The notes under the pieces are model-generated. The model was not told the DNA's origin. It made no database searches and saw only the letters and a program-made list of their open reading frames with translations. The position numbers and the translations under genes are program-made. From contig JAHPZH010000001.1 in the NCBI GenBank assembly GCA_019058315.1, forward strand, positions 1 to 64,000: a stretch of DNA of 64,000 bases, in the 5' to 3' direction. Shown one piece after another: positions 23,341 to 35,089 of this stretch (position 1 is the first letter of the stretch; the number at the start of each line of letters is the position of its first letter). Source of the stretch: Candidatus Helarchaeota archaeon (GTDB taxonomy: Archaea > Asgardarchaeota > Lokiarchaeia > Helarchaeales > RDOG01).

Positions 23341-26300
23341 TTACGTTAATAGCCAATCTTCCATTAATGTTATTTGTTCATTTGTGAAATGTTTTTGTGT
23401 AATTGCCCTAACTGGACATCTTGGAACGCATTTTCCACAACCTTTACATAATGCAGGATTTATCTCTGATTTACTAACCTCAACTGTAAATTCTTCGAGT
23501 ACTTGAGTACTAGTAGCTAATGAGATAGCACTATACGGGCAGACTTCAACGCAACTTCCACAGCCTATACATTTTTCAGGGTCAACATAGGAGATATTTC
23601 CTTCTGCCTCAATATAATCCTTACTTAAGACAGTGGAAGCCCTCGAAACCGCCGCATTAGCTTGAGCGATACTTTCTTTAATTGATTTAGGTGCATGTGC
23701 AAGACCGCACAAATAAATTCCTTCAGTAGCAAAATCTACTGGTCGGAGTTTCATATGAGCTTCAAGAAAGAATTGGTCCTCATTTAAGGGAACTTTTAAA
23801 ATTGGTGCCAAGTTTTCATTCCCCGGTGGTGCAACAATCCCTGCGCTTAAAACTAGAAGATCTGCATTAAAAGAGAGTTTTTCAATGCTTGAATTAGATA
23901 ATTCAATGTATAAAGCTCCATTTTTTTCAGTTACTATTGGAGGTTCCTTTTCATCAAATCTAATAAAAGTTATACCTTTCTCACGAGATAATCGATAATA
24001 CTTCTCCTTTAATCCATACGTGCGGATATCTCGATATAATATAAGAATTTCACTATCTGGGTTTTTTTCTTTAATTTTAAGAGCATTTTTAATTGCTTCT
24101 CCACAACAAACCCGACTGCAATAAGGGTGCTCTTCATTTCGGCTTCCCACACATTGAATCATTGCAATTTTTTTACCAATTTTCCCATTTGTATTCAATA
24201 ATTTTTCGAGTTTAGATTGAGTGATTACCTGAGGATTTTCACCATAGAGATATTCTTTTGGTTTATACTCATATGCTCCAGTCGCAACAACTATAACTCC
24301 ATGCTCTATCTCCTTTTTCTTACTACTCGAATTCTCTAAAACAACAGAATTAAAATTACCGACGTATCCATCAATAGTTTCGATAGTTGAATCAAGTAAA
24401 ACCTCGATATTATTTTTGTTTTCAACATTTTTTATCAATTCATGCAAAAATTTTTGCACATCTTCGTTTTCAAGAGTTATGTAAATATTTTTCGCAAATC
24501 CACCCAAATTTTTCTCTTTTTCAATTAAATAAGTCTTAAAACCTTGTTTAGCAAAACCTAATGCTGCTGTCATTCCTGCTATCCCCCCTCCAATCACAAG
24601 AGCATTATGGTTTACATTTAATGTTACTCGTTCTAATGGTTCAATTTGTGAGGCTTTTGCTACGGCCATTCTAACTAAATCTTTTGCTTTTTCAGTAGCC
24701 TTCTCTGGCTCGTGCATATGAACCCAAGAACACTGATCTCTTATATTTGCCATCTCAAATAAGTACTGGTTTAAACCAGCCTCCCTTATTGTCTCGCGGA
24801 ATAATGGTTCATGAGTTCTTGGTGTACAAGATGCAACTATAACGCGGTTCAATCTATGTTTTTTTATCATATCTTTAATTTTACTTTGTGTATCAGCAGA
24901 ACAAGTATATAAGTTCCTATCAGTAAAAACTACGTTAGGTAATGATTCGGCGTATTTAACAACTTGTGGAACATCAACTACCCCTCCAATATTTATTCCA
25001 CAATGACAAATGAAAACTCCTATACGTGGCTCTTGGTTTGATATATCTATTTCTTCAGGATATTCCTTTTCTGTAACCAATTCCCCTCTTACAGGAGCTA
25101 AAAGCTGCTGAACTTGCCCAGCAGCAGCCGAAGCCTCCATAACAGACTCAGGTATATCTTTAGGAGAAGCAAAAACCCCACATACATATATACCAGGTCT
25201 TGAAGACTCTATAGGATTAAATGGTTGTGTTTTGCAAAATCCATATTCATCTAAGTCAATATTTAGTTTTTCAGCTAATTCTTTAGCACTTTTAGTCGGA
25301 TTAAGCCCTACAGCAAGAATTACCATATTAAAAATTTCTTCTATATTTTCCCCCTTATCTCCTTCATATGTAAGAATTAAATCATGATTTTCTGGATCTT
25401 CTTCTATAGAGGCTATTCTACGCCTTATATAACGGATTCCATATTCATCTTTTGCTCGTTCTATATATTTATCAAAATCTTTTCCGTATGCCCGTACATC
25501 CATAGAAAATATTGTGGGGTTTACTTGGTGTTGGTGTTCTTTAGCTATGACTGCTTCTTTACAAGTATACATGCAACAGACCGAGCTGCAATAATCTTTT
25601 GAATGTGCCGGGTCTCTGGAACCGATACATTGGAGAAAGGCTACTTTACTTGGAATATCCCCATCAGAAGGTCTGAGAACCAACCCTCCAAAGGGCCCAC
25701 TCGCACTTAAAATGCGTTCAAATTCAATACTAGACAAAACATTAGGATATTTACCATAACCATACATTTTTAATGGAGTTGGATCGAATTCGTCAAATCC
25801 AATGGCTAAAATAACGGCCCCCACATCAAGCTCTATTGATTCACCAGTTTGAATATAATCAATTGCATGAGCTTTACAAACCCCTTCACAAACACCGCAC
25901 CCAATACATTCATCTTTATTAATGCAAAAAATTAATGGAACTGCTTGGGGATATTTAACAGAAACAGCTTTATTGCTGGCTAATTTTTCATTAAATAAAT
26001 CAATTGCTTCGGTAGGACAATTTCGAGCACATATTCCGCAACCAGTACATGCATCTTCTTTAATGTATCTTGCTTGTTTATGCAATTTTGCTTTAAAATT
26101 TCCCGGTTGTCCCTCAAGCTTTTCCAATTGTGCATTTGTAATTATTTCAATGTTTTGATGTCTTCCCGCTTCTATTAGCTTGGGAGCAAGGATGCACATT
26201 GCACAATCATTGGTTGGAAAAGTCTTATCTAATTGCGCCATGACTCCTCCAATACTGGTAGATGATTCTAAAAGGTAAACTTTAAATCCAGAATCAGCTA

Positions 26301-26367
26301 AATCAATAGATGCTTGAGTTCCGGCAATTCCACCGCCTACTACCAAAACTCCACCAATCTTTTCCAT
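23341..26367 (-). CDS. hdrA: Stand-alone long-form HdrA, close paralog of 4777-7794
   Basis: Same HdrA motifs; long stretches nearly identical to 4777-7794. Confidence 0.92.
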   Translation of the reverse strand: MEKIGGVLVVGGGIAGTQASIDLADSGFKVYLLESSTSIGGVMAQLDKTFPTNDCAMCILAPKLIEAGRHQNIEIITNAQLEKLEGQPGNFKAKLHKQARYIKEDACTGCGICARNCPTEAIDLFNEKLASNKAVSVKYPQAVPLIFCINKDECIGCGVCEGVCKAHAIDYIQTGESIELDVGAVILAIGFDEFDPTPLKMYGYGKYPNVLSSIEFERILSASGPFGGLVLRPSDGDIPSKVAFLQCIGSRDPAHSKDYCSSVCCMYTCKEAVIAKEHQHQVNPTIFSMDVRAYGKDFDKYIERAKDEYGIRYIRRRIASIEEDPENHDLILTYEGDKGENIEEIFNMVILAVGLNPTKSAKELAEKLNIDLDEYGFCKTQPFNPIESSRPGIYVCGVFASPKDIPESVMEASAAAGQVQQLLAPVRGELVTEKEYPEEIDISNQEPRIGVFICHCGINIGGVVDVPQVVKYAESLPNVVFTDRNLYTCSADTQSKIKDMIKKHRLNRVIVASCTPRTHEPLFRETIREAGLNQYLFEMANIRDQCSWVHMHEPEKATEKAKDLVRMAVAKASQIEPLERVTLNVNHNALVIGGGIAGMTAALGFAKQGFKTYLIEKEKNLGGFAKNIYITLENEDVQKFLHELIKNVENKNNIEVLLDSTIETIDGYVGNFNSVVLENSSSKKKEIEHGVIVVATGAYEYKPKEYLYGENPQVITQSKLEKLLNTNGKIGKKIAMIQCVGSRNEEHPYCSRVCCGEAIKNALKIKEKNPDSEILILYRDIRTYGLKEKYYRLSREKGITFIRFDEKEPPIVTEKNGALYIELSNSSIEKLSFNADLLVLSAGIVAPPGNENLAPILKVPLNEDQFFLEAHMKLRPVDFATEGIYLCGLAHAPKSIKESIAQANAAVSRASTVLSKDYIEAEGNISYVDPEKCIGCGSCVEVCPYSAISLATSTQVLEEFTVEVSKSEINPALCKGCGKCVPRCPVRAITQKHFTNEQITLMEDWLLT

Positions 26368-26617: not shown

Positions 26618-28258
26618 TTAATTATAGACAGACAGTATTTGATCAATTATCAATTGAGTTGCTTGTTTTTTCTTTGGTCCTAAGGGTGATCCAAACACAA
26701 ATTGAGTTACTCCTGCATTATGAAGCTCTTCAATTTTACTTATACAATCTTTTGGAGTACCACCAATAGCAAATGCTTCTACATATTTATCGTCTATCAA
26801 CGAGAATCCTCCAGCCATATTACCCTTAGAAAGCTGATTTCTCACTTGTTGAGCTATTTCAATGTTTAAATCATGTCGTTCAAGAACTTGAGGGGGTGTA
26901 GCTGCAGCAATAAAAGCAACAACTGGAACAGCTGCCTTAAATGCATCTTTTTTATTATCTGCTACTGAAAAACTTGTGTATGCAGTTACATCGACTTCTT
27001 CCATTTTTCTATTGGCTTTATTAACACCTTTTTGAATCATTTTATTCGCAATTTTAAAATCAAGTGGATGAGATGCATTTATTAAGACCCCATTGCCAAT
27101 TTCTCCTGCAAGTTGTAGCATCTTCGGTCCTTGAGCTCCAACGTAGATGGGAATTTCTCTCTTTGGTCTAAAATTGAATCTAGCATTATCTAGTTTAATA
27201 ATTTCACCGTCAAAATTAACAGTATCTTTTGTCCATAATGATCTAATAGCAGAAACTGTTTCTCTGACCGTTGTTAATGCTTTTTTCATTCCTATATTTA
27301 AAGATGCCAAGGTCGACTTATCACCAGCTCCCATTCCTAACATCATTCGCCCATTTGATATCATATCCAATGAAGCAATTGATTGTGCTGTAGCACTAAG
27401 ATGTCGAATATATGGATTTGTTACTCCCACTCCAAGATGTGCAGTGTTTGTCGCCCTTGCAATTAAAGTCAAAGTTACATATGGATCCATATTATTATAA
27501 TGGTCCGTAATCCATACTGTGTCCATTCCACCCATTTCAAATTTTCGTGAGTAATCTACAATCTTATCTAGCCCAGTGGCTGGGACTAATTCTACCCCGA
27601 ATCGAATATCACGGTCAACTTTCCGGGGGACAACTTTTCCAGGCATCCATTTAGTTTCGTCTATTGCTCTTATTGCTACTTGTAAGGCGTTAAATAAAGA
27701 TCTAGGATTATAATGACCTTTCAGTAGCTTATTTATATCTTGTTTTTCCTGTGGGCTAAGATTCAAACGTTTGATTTCATCCTTTGATAAAATTGATAAT
27801 ATATCATCAATGAAATCCTCTTTAATATCATTACTAAGACTTCCAAGTCTTGTTAATAAATTCTTAGGTTGGATTGGAACGTGTGTATCAATTGTTAATT
27901 CTGGTTTCACTTCTATTTCAGGAACTGTTATTTTTGGTTTTTCTGCCTCAAATTTTACTTTAAATTCCCGTTTAATTTCTAATTTTTCTTCAGGTTCTGC
28001 TTTAATAGCTGAATATTCCAAAGCAATACTTTTTGTAAATTGTGGATTTGCCTTGGCTGCAATATCTAGAACAGTAGAGACGAGGTATGAATTAGAATGT
28101 CCTTTAGCAAATCTTAATAATGCAGCCCTTTCTTGATCGTTCATGTCCATTTCTTCTTCACTAATTAATGAAAGTAACTCGTCTCTAAAATCATCCATAT
28201 GATCACCTGGAAGGTGATACAATTTTTCTTTTATACTTTTTTTAATCATTTCAACCAT
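26618..28258 (-). CDS. mer: F420-dependent methylene-H4MPT reductase (Mer) with a ~217-aa N-terminal extension containing two helical repeats
   Basis: RFGVELVP, WITDHYNN, GVTNPY, GAGDK, IPIYVGAQGPKML, GVLINASHP, GVTQFVFGSPLGP. Confidence 0.85.
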   Translation of the reverse strand: MVEMIKKSIKEKLYHLPGDHMDDFRDELLSLISEEEMDMNDQERAALLRFAKGHSNSYLVSTVLDIAAKANPQFTKSIALEYSAIKAEPEEKLEIKREFKVKFEAEKPKITVPEIEVKPELTIDTHVPIQPKNLLTRLGSLSNDIKEDFIDDILSILSKDEIKRLNLSPQEKQDINKLLKGHYNPRSLFNALQVAIRAIDETKWMPGKVVPRKVDRDIRFGVELVPATGLDKIVDYSRKFEMGGMDTVWITDHYNNMDPYVTLTLIARATNTAHLGVGVTNPYIRHLSATAQSIASLDMISNGRMMLGMGAGDKSTLASLNIGMKKALTTVRETVSAIRSLWTKDTVNFDGEIIKLDNARFNFRPKREIPIYVGAQGPKMLQLAGEIGNGVLINASHPLDFKIANKMIQKGVNKANRKMEEVDVTAYTSFSVADNKKDAFKAAVPVVAFIAAATPPQVLERHDLNIEIAQQVRNQLSKGNMAGGFSLIDDKYVEAFAIGGTPKDCISKIEELHNAGVTQFVFGSPLGPKKKQATQLIIDQILSVYN

Positions 28259-28733
28259 CTCCTTTCTTTTTTAAGGATTGATTTAAAAGATCTTGAGTAG
28301 CATTCCGATTTGCTTTAAAGGCAACTCGGATTGCATTTCGGATAATAAAATTTGTATAATGTCCTTTAATAAATTGTAATAGAGAAGTTCTTTCTCTATC
28401 TTCTAAATTAACACGTTTTCCTATGATAATATTCAATAAATCTTCGGCAAAATTTTCAAGCTCTTCTTTTGGTAAATCTAGTATTGGTTCGACTTTTTCT
28501 CCAATTTCTATGAAATAATCTTGTTCTTCTTTTTCTAAATTAAAAAAAGGAGTTAAAACAATATTATTCTGAACTGTAGTCCTGACAAGATATCTTCGTT
28601 CTTGCCTAAGATTTAAGCCATTTCTTTCTAATTCATTTAGTTCTTGTCGTCCAAAATAGATGGCAACTCCTCTATTAGGACCTTTATCGTGTAATTTTGC
28701 AACAATTGGTTCCATATTACTATATTCTTCCAT
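28251..28733 (-). CDS. Hypothetical protein: AbrB/SpoVT-like N-domain plus the same helical 'KGH' domain as the Mer extension
   Basis: VAKLHDKGPNRGVAIYFGRQEL...IVLTP; C-domain FAEDLLNII...RERTSLLQFIKGHY; overlaps the mer start by 8 nt. Confidence 0.7.
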   Translation of the reverse strand: MEEYSNMEPIVAKLHDKGPNRGVAIYFGRQELNELERNGLNLRQERRYLVRTTVQNNIVLTPFFNLEKEEQDYFIEIGEKVEPILDLPKEELENFAEDLLNIIIGKRVNLEDRERTSLLQFIKGHYTNFIIRNAIRVAFKANRNATQDLLNQSLKKKGDG

Positions 28734-28768
28734 TTTTATTCATGTAAAAAATTGAAAAAGTAATGGTT

Positions 28769-28837
28769 ATACTAGTGAAACTGGTGTCACGGAGATATAT
28801 ACTTTTTGGACGTAATCATACTAGTATGTATATATCT
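28769..28837. promoter_or_regulatory. Putative operator: inverted repeat and palindromes upstream of the AbrB-like/mer operon
   Basis: AGATATATAC (28793-28802) and GTATATATCT (28828-28837) form a perfect inverted repeat; palindrome CATACTAGTATG at 28817-28828; a second ATACTAGT at 28769-28776. Confidence 0.5.
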
Positions 28838-29027: not shown

Positions 29028-30122
29028 CTATTTATTATCATAACCAAGGTTTGCTATTATATCTAATGGATCAATTATATCTTTTGAGGGTATACTTTTG
29101 GTGAATTGAACCATTGGATTGTGTTTTGCTTGTAAATCTCCAGCAACTGAAGCCGCTGCCTTTGCAATATTTTTTAAACTTTTAGAAATACCCAATAAAC
29201 CTAATATAATGTTAATATCCTTATGATTCTTTAAAATCTCAGTTGCTATTTGGGATTCAATTTCTCTAACCTCAGATAAACTGTTGATTACATCATTAGC
29301 TCGAATAAAATCGTTTTTAAAAAATGCCAAAATTGCGTTTTGTTGCATTTTTAAGATAAATTTAGACATATTTGCAAACTTTTGTCTTAATTGAGCATTT
29401 ATATCATAATCTTTTAAATTAATCGCTTGTTTAGCAATTTCTACTGAACTATGAGCCTTCTTACTTAAATCTCGCGACATAATTAGCCCTATGACACAAT
29501 CAATTTTTTCATTAGCAGTACAAATTTCATCAGGACTAACTCGACCAGTTAATGTTAAATTTAGTTGACGTAACATTAACCTGAATAATTTATCAACTTC
29601 ATGTTCTCTATTAATAACATCAACTGCCAGTGCTTCATCTTTATTAAAAAATGATTTCATGGCATCATTATGCATTGAAGCCACAAGTGTGAAGATTCGT
29701 TTTATTAAACTGTTTAAAGGAAACTTAACTGGGTCTACCAAGACTCTAATGGTAACTTCATTAGCAAATTCTTCAGAAATTTCTGCACCTATTAAATTTG
29801 TTGTCGCTTCCTTTAATAATTTTTTACGTTGAGGTGTTATGGTATCTTCTGATACTATAGTTGTTATATCTGTACCTTGAATATAAGCACTATTTATCAT
29901 TCGCTCTAACGAGTTAGGTTCAATAAAATCTTCAGTTTTCAAGACGAATTTTAATTCATTATTGTTAAAATTTTTCATTGGTCGAATATATAAATTACCA
30001 TAATTGTCTTGGTTAATAACTAATTCATCCCCACGATTAATACTCATTTCATTTACCCAAGATTTAGGTAAGGTTAAAAAAAAACTTCCACTAGCTGTAG
30101 TCTGAATTTTTCTTGTTTCCAT
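29028..30122 (-). CDS. phoU: AbrB-PhoU family regulator (archaeal phosphate-uptake regulator type)
   Basis: METRKIQTTASGSFFLTLPKSW (AbrB) followed by two PhoU helical repeats (DEALAVDVINREHEVDKLF). Confidence 0.85.
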   Translation of the reverse strand: METRKIQTTASGSFFLTLPKSWVNEMSINRGDELVINQDNYGNLYIRPMKNFNNNELKFVLKTEDFIEPNSLERMINSAYIQGTDITTIVSEDTITPQRKKLLKEATTNLIGAEISEEFANEVTIRVLVDPVKFPLNSLIKRIFTLVASMHNDAMKSFFNKDEALAVDVINREHEVDKLFRLMLRQLNLTLTGRVSPDEICTANEKIDCVIGLIMSRDLSKKAHSSVEIAKQAINLKDYDINAQLRQKFANMSKFILKMQQNAILAFFKNDFIRANDVINSLSEVREIESQIATEILKNHKDINIILGLLGISKSLKNIAKAAASVAGDLQAKHNPMVQFTKSIPSKDIIDPLDIIANLGYDNK

Positions 30123-30317: not shown

Positions 30318-31235
30318 ATGAATGAAAAATTAATTATTTCGGTTCAGGACGCAGGAAAGGCACGAGGAAAAAGAATATATTTTACTAATAGAGATTTAAA
30401 TAAAATTAAAGAAAAATATGGCGAAGATTTCTTTCTTTTCCAAGAAAAAAAATTAATTGCGCAAATAGACTTGTCAAATGATAAAATAACAATTACTCCA
30501 CTCACCAAATTCAACCCCGAAAAAATCGGTGCAACTGGTGACACGGTATTAAAATACGATCAGGTTAATGAATATACCACTGTAGTTGAAGAAAATAAGG
30601 AATTTGCTAATTTTAATTATAATCTTGATGAACTTAATTACGAACCCTCACAATTAGATTTCTATATTCCTATGGATGGAAAAGGTGAAAAATATTGGAT
30701 TGCCGAAGTGATTTTAGGAGAAAAATTGGCATTCTATAGTGTAGGAAATTCAATTTCCATTGTAAAAAAGGAAAATAAAAGAAAAGCAAAGAAATATTTT
30801 CCTGGCATTTTAAATCTTAAAAATGTTGAAATTAATTATGTAAATGATTATCTAGTATATTCACCCGTTCCTAGTTTCATTGCTGATACTGCATATAACC
30901 AAATATCAAAAAAGAAAATTAATGGTACAGAAATTCCAGCAAAAATTTCTGTTCCTAGTGATGCCGATCTAACCCCCATAGTTGATATGAATAAAGGTAA
31001 GATAAAAGGTCTTGCGATAAAGAAAAGAGAACTACTAGCAAAATATGAAATTAATGCAATTGTTTCAGAAAAATATAATGTAGAGGATCTTAAGATTACC
31101 GAACTTAATGGTGAACTTATTTGGGAAGTTCTTACAAATGAAGGAAAACGATATTTCGATCCTTTTACTGGAATCGAATATGATGGCCTATCTAAAATTA
31201 AAAATCCTACTAAATCAGTAAAAAGCGTGAATTAA
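30318..31235 (+). CDS. Hypothetical protein: AbrB-like N-domain and PepSY-like C-terminus
   Basis: ISVQDAGKARGKRIYFT...ITITP resembles the N-domain of 28251-28733; C-terminal ELNGELIWEV...YFDPFTG. Confidence 0.6.
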   Translation: MNEKLIISVQDAGKARGKRIYFTNRDLNKIKEKYGEDFFLFQEKKLIAQIDLSNDKITITPLTKFNPEKIGATGDTVLKYDQVNEYTTVVEENKEFANFNYNLDELNYEPSQLDFYIPMDGKGEKYWIAEVILGEKLAFYSVGNSISIVKKENKRKAKKYFPGILNLKNVEINYVNDYLVYSPVPSFIADTAYNQISKKKINGTEIPAKISVPSDADLTPIVDMNKGKIKGLAIKKRELLAKYEINAIVSEKYNVEDLKITELNGELIWEVLTNEGKRYFDPFTGIEYDGLSKIKNPTKSVKSVN

Positions 31236-31627: not shown

Positions 31628-34600
31628 ATGAAGTCAAATCAAATGTTAGTTATTGGCGGTGGTGTAAGTGGTATCAGTGCAGCATTAGATCTGGCAGATC
31701 AAGGTTTCAAAACATACTTAATAGAGAGTTATCCATCCGTCGGAGGTAGAATGGCACAATTAGACAAGACATTTCCTACATTAGATTGTTCGATTTGCAT
31801 TTTAGCTCCGAAAATGGTCGAGGTTGCCCGTCATGAGAGAATAGAGCTTTTAACGTACTCAGAGGTTAAAGAAGTTCAAAAATTAGATAATGGAAATTTT
31901 AAAGTTAAGATAGTTAAGAAAGCACGATATGTTGATGATTCAAAATGCACCGGTTGCGGAGTTTGTGCCGAAAAATGTCCTATAAAAAAGATTCCCCATG
32001 AATTTGAAGCAGAAATGACCAATAGAACTGCAATTTATATCCCCTTTCCCCAAGCAGTTCCCCGAAAAGCAGTTATTGATACTGAAAATTGCCTATATTT
32101 TCAAAAAGGCATTTGTAAAGCATGCGAAAAATTTTGTCAAGCAGGAGCTATAGACTTCGAACAAAAAGATGAAGAAATTGAAGTCGAAGTCGCTTCAATA
32201 GTTGTTGCTACAGGATTTGATTTAATTGATCCTTCTACAGTATCTGCTCGATTTGGTTATAAAAAATATCCCAATGTGGTGACTAGCCTTCAATATGAGC
32301 GGATTCTGAGTGCCTCAGGACCTTATGGTGGAGAAGTATTGCGTCCTTCTGATAAAAAACATCCGCATAAAATAGCATTTATGTTATGTGTGGGCAGTCG
32401 TAACACAGATAAGAAAGCCAAGTCTTATTGTAGTAAATTCTGTTGCATGTATAGTTGTAAGGATTCAATTATCACTAAGGAACATGCACCAGATGTAGAT
32501 GTGACAATTTTTTATAATGACTTGAGAACTATTGGAAAAGGCCATGAGGAATTTTTTGTAAGAGCTGAAAATGAGTATGGTATTAATTTCATTAATGGTT
32601 TACCTGCTTATATTGAAGAAGATCCTTTAACAAATGATCTGATTGTTCAATATGAAAATATCAAAGAGGGAACCATTCAAACTGAAACGTTCAATATGAT
32701 TATTCTAGCACCAGCTGTAATTCCAAGAAGTGATTCAACTGAATTAGGGAAAATTTTAGGCATTAAAGTTGATGAAAACGGTTTTTTCGAGCCTACTAAT
32801 TCAGCCAATATTCTTGAATCATCTGTTGAAGGAATATATCTTGTCGGATCTTGTCAGAGTCCAGAAGATATCTCACATTCGGTTGCAAAAGCATGTGGTG
32901 CTTCGGCTCTAGCGGGTTCACGAGGTCGTCCTGATTTTGAAGTTGGAAAGAAGCTAGAAGTTCCAGAAAGGATAGTTTTACCCACTGATCCCCCAAGGAT
33001 AGGTGTATTTATCTGTCATTGTGGAATAAATATTGGTGGGGTTGTTGATGTCCCAAAAGTGGTAGAATATGTAAAAACACTCCCCAATGTTGTTTATGCT
33101 ACTGAAAATCTCTATACCTGTTCTGAAGATTCTCAAGTTCTTATAAAAGAGGCAATTGAAAAAAATGACCTTAATCGAGTAATCGTAGCAGCATGTACAC
33201 CAAGAACTCATGAGCCATTATTTAGGGAAACAATCAAAGAGGTTGGCTTAAATCCATATCTATTTACATTTGCAAGTATACGAGAACTTGTTTCTTGGGT
33301 TCATATGAAAGAACCTGAAGCCGCTACTGATAAAGCTAAAGATATGGTAAGAATGGCGATTTCACGATCAAGGTATTTAGAACCTCAAACTACAATTGAA
33401 GCTGATGTGAGACAATCTGTTCTAGTCATAGGAGGCGGAATCGCAGGGTTAAGTGCAGCTAATGCAATAGGAATTAGGGGCTATCGTGTGCATCTGATCG
33501 AACAAAAAGATCATTTAGGAGGTCTATTAACCGAACTTGATTCGATCAATTTTGAACGAATTAATGCTAAGGATTTTATCAACCAAGTAATCGAAAATGT
33601 AAAAGCTAATGCCCAAATAAAAATCTACACCAATACCATTATTAAAGACATTCATGGTTCAATTGGAGATTTTAATGTTGACCTTAATATTAATGGAGAA
33701 ATAAAAAACGTTAAAGTTGGGGCTATAATTGTAGCAGCAGGATCTGACCTATCTAAAGATGGTATATTTGGTTATGGAACTCATCCAAATATTTACACTC
33801 AACTTGAATTCATTAAGAAATTCGAAAATAAGGAATTTAAAGATGGTGAAAATTTCGCATTTATTCAGTGTGCAGGACAACGAGATCCAGAAGGATTGAC
33901 CTATTGTTCGAACATTTGTTGTGAAGTTGCAATAAAAAGTTCGATGCAGATTAAAGAAATCTATCCTAATTCTAATGTGTGTATCTTATATCGTGATATA
34001 CGAGTAGAACCTGAAGGGGAAGAATATTATCGAAAATCAAGAGAAAATACAGCTTATTTAAAATACGTAGAAAAACCAAGAGTTTCAGTTGGTTCTGATA
34101 ATAAAATTATGATTCAGGTCAAGAATGTATTGACTGGTTCAGATATAGAATTGCCTGTTGATCATTTAATTCTTGCAACTCCAATGATAGCTTATCCAGA
34201 TAATAAAAAACTTTCCGAATTTTTGAAAGTTCCTCTAGGACCGATGGGATTCTTCTTGGAAGCTCATCCAAAGCTAAGACCCGTCGATTTTGCTACAGAT
34301 GGAATTTTTGTTTGTGGTGCAGCTCAAAGTCCTAAAAATGTAGCTGATTCCATAAGTCAAGCATTAGGTGCTGCTTCTAGAGCGTTGCGATTCATTGAAA
34401 GAGGAAAGGTTGAGAGTGAAGCCATCACGGCGTGGGTGGACCCAAATCTATGTATAAGTTGCGGAATGTGTCAACATATTTGTCCATATGGTGCAATTGG
34501 AATTAGAGTTGAGGAAGGTAAAATAGTTTCCGAAGTAAATCAATTATTGTGTAAAGGTTGTGGAACATGTAGTGTTGTATGCCCTGCCCAAGCCATTACA

Positions 34601-35089
34601 ATGCGCCATTATGGTATGGAACCCATATTAGATATGGTTCATGAAGCAGTAGCGATACAACCACCTGAAGATGAACCAAGAGTTGTAGCTTTCTTGTGTA
34701 ATTGGTGTTGTTACGCCGGCGCAGATAATGCGGGTGTTAGTCGATTTCAATATCCACCTAATATCAGAGTGATAAGATTAATGTGTAGTGGTCGTGTTGA
34801 TCCACTATTTGTTCTCGAAGCATTTGCAAGTGGCGCAGATGGTGTATTCATCGGAGGATGCCACATAGGAGATTGTCACTATATTTCGGGCAACGAAAAG
34901 GCATATCGGAGAGTCATAAAGCTTAAAAAAACATTAGAAGAGGTGGGCATCGATCCTGCAAGATTTAAGTTAGAATGGGTATCGGCTAGTGAAGGCAAGA
35001 TTTTCCAAAAAGTAATAACTGAATTTGTTCAAGAGTTGAAAAAATTAGGTCCTAGTAAATTAAGACCAAAAATACTTGGAGGTAATTAA
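31628..35089 (+). CDS. hdrA: Long-form HdrA fused to a C-terminal MvhD
   Basis: HdrA motifs plus terminal AFLCNWCCYAGAD...GCHIGDCHY...WVSASEG. Confidence 0.92.
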   Translation: MKSNQMLVIGGGVSGISAALDLADQGFKTYLIESYPSVGGRMAQLDKTFPTLDCSICILAPKMVEVARHERIELLTYSEVKEVQKLDNGNFKVKIVKKARYVDDSKCTGCGVCAEKCPIKKIPHEFEAEMTNRTAIYIPFPQAVPRKAVIDTENCLYFQKGICKACEKFCQAGAIDFEQKDEEIEVEVASIVVATGFDLIDPSTVSARFGYKKYPNVVTSLQYERILSASGPYGGEVLRPSDKKHPHKIAFMLCVGSRNTDKKAKSYCSKFCCMYSCKDSIITKEHAPDVDVTIFYNDLRTIGKGHEEFFVRAENEYGINFINGLPAYIEEDPLTNDLIVQYENIKEGTIQTETFNMIILAPAVIPRSDSTELGKILGIKVDENGFFEPTNSANILESSVEGIYLVGSCQSPEDISHSVAKACGASALAGSRGRPDFEVGKKLEVPERIVLPTDPPRIGVFICHCGINIGGVVDVPKVVEYVKTLPNVVYATENLYTCSEDSQVLIKEAIEKNDLNRVIVAACTPRTHEPLFRETIKEVGLNPYLFTFASIRELVSWVHMKEPEAATDKAKDMVRMAISRSRYLEPQTTIEADVRQSVLVIGGGIAGLSAANAIGIRGYRVHLIEQKDHLGGLLTELDSINFERINAKDFINQVIENVKANAQIKIYTNTIIKDIHGSIGDFNVDLNINGEIKNVKVGAIIVAAGSDLSKDGIFGYGTHPNIYTQLEFIKKFENKEFKDGENFAFIQCAGQRDPEGLTYCSNICCEVAIKSSMQIKEIYPNSNVCILYRDIRVEPEGEEYYRKSRENTAYLKYVEKPRVSVGSDNKIMIQVKNVLTGSDIELPVDHLILATPMIAYPDNKKLSEFLKVPLGPMGFFLEAHPKLRPVDFATDGIFVCGAAQSPKNVADSISQALGAASRALRFIERGKVESEAITAWVDPNLCISCGMCQHICPYGAIGIRVEEGKIVSEVNQLLCKGCGTCSVVCPAQAITMRHYGMEPILDMVHEAVAIQPPEDEPRVVAFLCNWCCYAGADNAGVSRFQYPPNIRVIRLMCSGRVDPLFVLEAFASGADGVFIGGCHIGDCHYISGNEKAYRRVIKLKKTLEEVGIDPARFKLEWVSASEGKIFQKVITEFVQELKKLGPSKLRPKILGGN

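Follow-up and report, generated by a model that had tools for sequence, protein, structure and literature searches.

Methylene-tetrahydromethanopterin reductase (Mer) is one of the core enzymes of methanogenesis and of the archaeal tetrahydromethanopterin (H4MPT) Wood-Ljungdahl pathway, and it has so far been treated as a bare TIM barrel; the canonical protein of methanogens (families TIGR03555 and NF002619) is an F420-dependent barrel of about 325 amino acids (aa). Trigger enzymes, such as the glutamine synthetase of Bacillus subtilis with TnrA/GlnR and PutA of Escherichia coli, are known to act either via their catalytic body or via a fused DNA-binding domain. In type II toxin-antitoxin pairs (MazE-MazF, AbrB-type VapB-VapC), the upstream gene is small and codes for a DNA-binding domain of the swapped-hairpin type, at the N-terminus, followed by a C-terminal partner-binding part; this gene overlaps that of its partner and has an operator site at its own promoter. 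In beta-carboxysomes, the SSUL repeats of CcmM are tandem modules homologous to free RbcS. Here, we analysed a window of 64,000 nucleotides (nt) from contig JAHPZH010000001.1 of a Candidatus Helarchaeota archaeon, to which all coordinates given without a locus name refer. The only canonical Mer of this organism bears, in tandem, an undescribed domain, referred to here as KGH, which it has in common with a putative DNA-binding protein, the S protein, encoded just upstream.

The two genes are minus-strand open reading frames (ORFs) at 26618-28733 which overlap by 8 nt. Their parts, with domain limits taken from hidden Markov model (HMM) envelopes, family profiles, the sequence itself or AlphaFold2 (AF2) models, are as follows:

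26618 to 28258, minus strand: P0001 gene, 546 aa, encoding KGH-A, linker, KGH-B and Mer (ORF and family profiles)
26621 to 27604, minus strand: Mer catalytic TIM-barrel core, aa 219-546 (NF002619, TIGR03555, PF00296)
27641 to 27868, minus strand: KGH type B, Mer aa 131-206, the Mer-proximal copy (HMM envelope; clade B)
27869 to 28003, minus strand: K/E/P-rich linker, Mer aa 86-130, with low conservation of both length and sequence (sequence)
28004 to 28243, minus strand: KGH type A, Mer aa 6-85, the Mer-distal copy (HMM envelope; clade A)
28251 to 28733, minus strand: P0002 gene, the S protein, 160 aa, with an AbrB/MazE-like predicted N-domain, a linker helix and a C-terminal KGH (ORF, AF2)
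28266 to 28505, minus strand: KGH type S, aa 77-156 of P0002 (HMM envelope; clade S)
28536 to 28712, minus strand: S N-domain, aa 8-66 of P0002 (predicted beta-beta-alpha-beta-beta)

By its family scores, the core of P0001 is a full-length Mer, a predicted F420-dependent methylene-H4MPT reductase. It reached 412.1 bits against NF002619 (cut-off 276), 389.9 bits against TIGR03555 (cut-off 348.7; aa 220-542 aligned to model positions 1-324 of 325) and an E value of 7e-63 against PF00296, and it was the only gene in the whole 5.8-Mb genome to pass the cut-offs. Since the core spans the entire Mer model, the N-terminal extension of 215 aa is genuine extra sequence on a canonical Mer. The protein thus resembles the canonical enzyme in that residues 219-542 match the whole model, but it departs from the single-domain architecture of about 325 aa in having 546 aa with two KGH domains up front; relatives have 1, 6 or 8. 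The extensions of Mer orthologues vary in length from 186 to 215 aa. Neither the first 215 residues of P0001 nor any part of P0002 matched a family in Pfam or NCBIfam.

An original prediction, made from the letters of this DNA, had proposed that one domain occurs three times in the two genes, and the alignments bore this out. In BLASTP comparisons the two Mer copies aligned to each other with an E value of 2e-9 (29% identity over 72 aa), and the C-terminal half of P0002 aligned to Mer copy 1 and Mer copy 2 with E values of 9e-14 and 5e-9, respectively. The positions it gave for the copies agree closely with the HMM envelopes (Mer 6-85 and 131-206; P0002 77-156) of a domain of about 78 residues. 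Its remark that the domain was unfamiliar also proved right, as no family in Pfam, NCBIfam or PDB sequence searches matches KGH. A profile search of the 5.8-Mb genome recovered these three copies only, and the same three were recovered in orthologues on four other contigs. Outside this set the domain is rare: a word-indexed search of 5.8 billion proteins returned four P0002 homologues and one further extended Mer, and when 1.84 billion cluster representatives were searched exhaustively by profile there were 28 KGH matches, two of which (P0025 and P0038) were repeat-protein artefacts, so that about 25 proteins in that set bear the domain. The KGH profile and the P0002 N-domain profile had no match in the 399 other genomes searched of the phylum, and no relative turned up when 185,579 species genomes were scanned by pattern.

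Conservation within the domain is sparse. Across 34 KGH copies, only the glycine of the 'KGH' tripeptide and the glutamate that starts helix 2 are conserved in at least 90%, and the tripeptide itself is not invariant (the K position may have R, N, Q or G instead, and the H position Q, N, E, Y or V). With one Glu and one Gly conserved to this degree and K and H variable, the pattern speaks against a site for catalysis or cofactor attachment and against a conserved site for a ligand, and a conserved small-molecule or covalent attachment site in KGH seems unlikely. For this reason the ligand-binding half of the earlier suggestion of a docking or ligand-binding domain is disfavoured. A covalent carrier domain acting via the 'K' was likewise rejected, as many copies have R, N, Q or G instead. 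Most copies are acidic, with an isoelectric point (pI) of about 4.1-5.9, and Mer-distal copies reach a net charge of -11; within the domain the charge is dipolar, the N-half being acidic (-1 to -11) and the C-half mostly neutral to basic (-3 to +6), and the turn between helices 2 and 3 usually bears basic or His residues. That most copies are acidic speaks against the whole domain binding nucleic acids, and KGH as a DNA binder is disfavoured on the same ground. Charge complementarity among the S, A and B copies was also considered and was inconsistent between loci.

A gene of the S type, i.e. a P0002-like N-domain with a C-terminal KGH, is present in 11 loci (the window, L014, L015, L016, L034, L035 as a fragment, L036, L040, L041, L047 and L048), and in every one of them (11/11) the downstream neighbour carries KGH; where both ends are visible, the two genes overlap or lie no more than 13 nt apart. 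The number of KGH copies on Mer is 1 (P0040, P0041), 2 (the window clade and L041), 6 (P0015) or 8 (P0014). Type A occurs in 1-7 tandem copies when it is fused to Mer, whereas type B is always single and directly precedes the Mer barrel; the type B copy of the window Mer has a 3-residue insert after helix 1. In a maximum-likelihood tree of 50 copies, the backbone of which is unresolved, all Mer-distal copies formed clade A (support 99/95), the Mer-proximal copies, including those of the single-copy Mers, formed clade B (98/94), and the small-protein copies of the window clade formed clade S (91/87), so that the three types have stayed distinct, as long-lived paralogues.

The arrangement of type A differs between lineages. 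L036, L047 and L048 encode a free-standing KGH protein of about 106-109 aa, with an acidic N-terminus, between S and a Mer that has a B copy, and L040 has an S gene paired with a small free-standing KGH gene and no Mer downstream. In the window clade, the fused A copy takes the place of the free-standing small KGH gene. This alternation of free and fused A copies is a Rosetta-stone pattern and, as seen from gene structure, is the strongest indirect argument for KGH proteins working together. The variable copy number and the variable K/E/P-rich linkers fit the multivalent display of a protein-binding module and not catalysis. The original prediction had the domain couple the small protein physically to Mer; what the comparison supports in that proposal is an evolutionary link between the two, through the adjacency in 11/11 loci, the overlapping or abutting genes and the Rosetta-stone-type fusion.

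The N-terminal half of S had been called AbrB-like. When modelled by AF2 within the whole of P0002, it consisted of strands at residues 13-16, 23-26, 48-52 and 58-62 and a helix at 29-37; its conserved residues are G18, R21, G22 and Y26, and the KG..RG hairpin tip is conserved. Matches to MazE/AbrB (PF04014) clusters in the ESM Atlas had TM scores of 0.60-0.61 by row, and the best Foldseek match of the whole S model was VapB (6nkl), on the N-domain, with a probability of 0.87 but an E value of 0.38. Sequence comparisons gave no support: Pfam at E values up to 1 gave no match for P0002 or for any of 16 N-domains, hhalign against the genuine AbrB domain of the neighbouring AbrB-PhoU proteins gave a probability of 3.8%, and a PDB profile search with the S N-domain returned no AbrB-type match. 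Since no sequence method backs membership in AbrB, 'AbrB-like' is to be taken as a lead at the level of the modelled fold, and a weak one, and not as a family assignment. S is small and, judged by the model, probably DNA-binding. Free-standing versions of the S N-domain, of 74-75 aa, occur in L040 and L048.

The S gene is preceded by a spacer of 294 nt, which contains the following elements:

28768 to 28827, minus strand: conserved promoter block of about 60 nt upstream of the S gene (spacer comparison with L014)
28793 to 28806, minus strand: TATA box and A-rich BRE, within the promoter block
28775 to 28790, minus strand: imperfect inverted repeat GTGACACCAGTTTCAC (GTGACAC...GTTTCAC), immediately downstream of the TATA box, within the promoter block
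28818 to 28825 and 28769 to 28776, minus strand: ACTAGTAT on both sides, within the promoter block

The promoter block is about 95% identical to the spacer of L014, compared with about 50-60% for the remaining intergenic region. Variants of the repeat are found at the same place in L015, L034, L040, L041, L047 and L048. Exact GTTTCAC/GTGAAAC heptamers occur 16 times in 73 kb of loci, and nine of these sit within 130 nt upstream of S genes, an approximately 30-fold enrichment across loci with a nominal binomial P of 2e-12, for a motif which was picked after inspection and in a set that includes close relatives such as the window and L014. A site overlapping the transcription start region is the usual position of an archaeal repressor. 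The repeat is operator-like and gives circumstantial support for DNA binding by S, which is present in all repeat-bearing loci; an AbrB-PhoU neighbour is present in most of them. A perfect palindrome upstream of the TATA box, ATACTAGTAT, was discarded as a candidate, since with 3 matches in the window, where 2.6 would be expected, it shows no enrichment.

From an alignment of 34 sequences, AF2 modelled KGH alone as a four-helix bundle (pLDDT 93, pTM 0.81), and from an alignment of six sequences it modelled P0002 (pLDDT 82.6) with a linker helix at residues 68-85 and the four KGH helices at 89-158. The best structural matches in the PDB were helix-turn-helix (HTH) proteins of the XRE type (3eus, Z 5.8, rmsd 2.6 over 65 aa; 3f6w, Z 5.0), with controller proteins, HipB and further XRE entries coming next (Z 3.8-4.5); when the linker helix was counted in, giving five helices, death-fold domains matched with Z 4-5 over 70-90 residues. 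All of these XRE and death-fold Z scores fall under the noise level that the tool states for helical domains. Foldseek gave no match below an E value of 3.9 for the KGH-only model, none of the 34 copies matched an HTH family of Pfam at E values up to 0.01, an ESM Atlas feature search gave no usable match, and a PDB sequence-profile search returned only designed helical repeats and Pumilio repeats, which were judged to reflect compositional or helical bias. KGH is, as modelled, a four-helix bundle without a clear structural relative; the model weakly resembles XRE HTH and death-fold (PYD/CARD) domains in size and helix packing, but it differs from them in having four helices instead of five or six, no sequence similarity and a mostly acidic composition. 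The idea that KGH is a piece of PhoU was rejected, since hhalign gave a probability of 0.4% when the KGH profile was compared to the AbrB-PhoU neighbours.

These data suggest, at the level of genes and sequences, that enzyme and regulator dock via their shared domain. The mechanism that we favour is an autoregulatory module, toxin-antitoxin-like or trigger-enzyme-like, in which S would bind the promoter repeat and the KGH array of Mer would bind S; we hold this to be possible while stopping short of calling it probable. In such a module KGH would be an autonomous protein-protein interaction domain of about 78 residues in four helices. S would bind the GTGACAC...GTTTCAC repeat just downstream of the TATA box and so autoregulate the S-(A)-Mer operon, its own KGH would pair with the A and B domains that Mer displays on flexible linkers, and the amount (or the state) of Mer would titrate the regulator or co-repress with it. 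What the sequences show is the domain with its homology and predicted fold class, the architectures, the strict gene order, the fusion and the conserved promoter motif; that S binds DNA, that KGH domains pair with each other, the sign of the regulation and any redox sensing are steps that we infer. A further proposal, which we regard as more tentative, is that KGH represents a new homotypic docking class, through which Mer would show 1-8 sites to its own DNA-binding regulator and to free KGH adaptors; in an Asgard-type archaeon this would make either a multivalent transcription switch that senses the abundance of the enzyme or an assembly centred on Mer.

Set beside type II toxin-antitoxin modules, the locus has the small upstream gene with a hairpin-type N-terminal domain (predicted here) and a C-terminal partner-binding part (proposed here), the overlap with the partner gene and the operator-like site at its own promoter, and the best matches of the S model are VapB in Foldseek and MazE clusters in the Atlas. 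However, the downstream partner is a full-length Mer, a central metabolic enzyme and not a toxin, the proposed contact would be between homologous folded domains and not through an unfolded antitoxin tail, and sequence comparison does not place the S N-domain in PF04014. The likeness to trigger enzymes lies in a metabolic enzyme proposed to control the transcription factor of its own pathway; the difference is that here a dedicated domain, common to regulator and enzyme and amplified in tandem, would mediate an interaction that we infer.

Several observations weigh against autoregulation through docking. Arrays of 6-8 tandem copies exceed the apparent need of a simple titration device, and the best structural matches of KGH itself, weak as they are, are XRE-type HTH proteins (Z 5.8 and 5.0). 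The S N-domain was not placed in AbrB by Pfam or hhalign, and the neighbouring genuine AbrB-PhoU regulator, present in most loci, could equally bind the promoter repeat. In L037, the neighbours of a KGH protein are a GvpD/KaiC-like ATPase and FrhB, and no S gene is visible. A complex prediction for the Mer extension with S residues 66-160 had a score of 0.02, for which controls were not run, and it counts neither for nor against binding.

An ATPase of the GvpD_P-loop/KaiC type is encoded beside KGH genes, or a few kb from them, in five loci, in the following regions:

L016, 3380 to 4798
L036, 2002 to 3649
L037, 4552 to 6360
L040, 3 to 694
L048, 197 to 1058

In most of these five loci the ATPase is adjoined by a 'hairpin' protein of about 55-67 aa, which is fused to KGH in P0026, P0027 and P0029; the fusion protein of L037 precedes FrhB and FlpD. 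The only GvpD-like ATPase of the window genome is on another contig, with no KGH gene seen beside it, and the single-protein query used did not recover the hairpin protein from that genome. If KGH is a docking domain, it may in some lineages also be wired to this ATPase.

The lability of the copy number, between 1 and 8, and the flexible K/E/P-rich linkers would also suit a scaffold, in which KGH arrays act as multivalent 'beads on a string' that cluster Mer and other KGH proteins into a metabolon, filament or condensate and S serves as an adaptor instead of a transcription factor. A dipolar domain could favour head-to-tail association and, together with the linker helix, there is the weak resemblance (Z 4-5) to death-fold homotypic modules; CcmM offers an analogy, as it shares with the KGH system tandem small modules on flexible linkers, an enzyme-like fusion, a free-standing homologue and variable copy number. 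Nevertheless, fold and pathway are unrelated to those of CcmM and RbcS, and the free KGH relative has a putative DNA-binding domain. The DNA-binding hairpin domain that the N-half of S resembles, the operator-like repeat at its own promoter and the pairing of S and A without Mer in L040 speak against S as a mere adaptor, and the structural similarities lie under the noise level; a scaffold is in our opinion unlikely. Domains such as ACT, CBS and GAF have been recruited independently to different proteins, and by analogy KGH might be a shared sensor of a small molecule (F420/F420H2, an H4MPT derivative or another) which regulator and enzyme acquired separately, with no docking between them. The F420-linked enzymes Mer and FrhB, which KGH proteins adjoin, and the basic or His residues usual in the helix 2-helix 3 turn would agree with such a role, but the conservation of just one Glu and one Gly, the wide variation of K and H and the compact predicted bundle of 78 residues do not, and it would be unusual for a single enzyme to have 6-8 sensor domains in tandem. 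A common sensor thus seems less likely still.

The ATPase genes raise a different explanation, by analogy with haloarchaea, where GvpD lowers the amount of GvpE: KGH may be a recognition tag through which the GvpD/KaiC-like ATPase and its hairpin partner would control the stability or activity of KGH-bearing proteins. Both the presence of the ATPase gene near KGH genes in L016, L036, L037, L040 and L048 and the fusion of the hairpin to KGH agree with it. The GvpD_P-loop-type ATPase near KGH regulator-like genes is also the feature in common with the GvpD-GvpE pair of haloarchaeal gas-vesicle clusters. These loci, in contrast, have no gas-vesicle genes, the window has no such ATPase nearby, the window genome yielded no hairpin protein with the query used, and the contigs of L014, L015, L034 and L041, which are short, carry no ATPase. 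No similarity between KGH and GvpE was detected, in searches which did not include a direct comparison to GvpE. We consider a tag quite improbable. The least plausible of the explanations, and in our judgement a very improbable one, is that KGH is a divergent XRE-like HTH which tethers Mer to DNA or RNA; the XRE-family entries 3eus and 3f6w are the best structural matches, but their Z values are under the noise level, the acidity of most copies (pI about 4.1-5.9) and the lack of a Pfam HTH match in all 34 copies speak against it, and S already has a separate putative DNA-binding domain.

Should S and Mer indeed dock, the locus would stand as a clear example from the archaea of a metabolic enzyme that feeds back on its own transcription by way of a dedicated module open to amplification, and it would give a handle on the regulation of C1 flux in uncultured sediment archaea. 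Whatever the mechanism, two domain families new to Pfam and NCBIfam are described here, namely KGH and the N-domain of S and P0003.

P0003 and the AbrB-PhoU gene are the neighbours upstream of the S gene:

29028 to 30122, minus strand: P0004, AbrB(MazE)-PhoU regulator gene (PF04014 E 2e-6, PF01895 E 9e-19)
30318 to 31235, plus strand: P0003, 305 aa, the genome's only paralogue of the S N-domain, divergent, heading the hdrA-mvhD operon side (BLASTP, profile search)

P0003 was recognised through its similarity to the S N-domain (BLASTP E 2e-6; own-genome profile search E 1.5e-23). In the window, P0004 precedes S and Mer, and P0003 is divergent from them, toward an HdrA-like gene. An AbrB-PhoU gene also stands beside the S-Mer cassette in L014, L015, L016, L034 and L041. 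The orthologue of P0003 at L041:2721-3506 (minus strand) occupies the same position, divergent from the AbrB-PhoU, S and Mer genes, and there it heads genes for FlpD-Fer4, DUF5981 (MetV-like) and MTHFR. The regulator-Mer region of the window is flanked by ORFs for HdrA-like flavoprotein/FeS proteins at 23341-26367 (minus strand) and 31628-35089 (plus strand), of 1008 and 1153 aa, respectively.

Mers of the same family and the same order as the window organism are plain proteins of about 335 aa, encoded in tandem pairs, and are 43-46% identical to the window core, whereas identity to that core is 48-88% for the KGH-bearing Mers, whose contigs have 30-53% GC; being closer to the window core than the plain Mers of the same family or order, the KGH-bearing Mers form a subfamily of their own. 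In two of the plain tandem pairs, G124:C247:11864-12862 and G123:C56:5363-6370 (L026 and L027), the search reported in-frame TGA/TAG stops within its match to the first gene, which may be alignment overhang, pseudogenes or recoding. The 8-copy and 6-copy Mers, P0014 and P0015 (L034:1714-4953 and L035:165-2825), have the most diverged barrels, with 48% identity to the window core and visible differences in loops that are conserved elsewhere. Adjoining the 8-copy Mer cassette, at L034:5164-5607, is a gene for a UQ_con protein (E2 ubiquitin-conjugating enzyme), which fits an Asgard-type host for that contig.

A second cassette with the same logic and another domain was observed at L016:10492-14145. 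A protein of 212 aa is encoded there which is homologous (BLASTP E 6e-8) to the N-terminal extension, of about 215 aa, of the product of the downstream neighbour gene, a 560-aa Mpt_N (methylene-H4MPT dehydrogenase-like) enzyme. This cassette is preceded by a near-identical AbrB-PhoU paralogue, one of three on the 14.8-kb contig.

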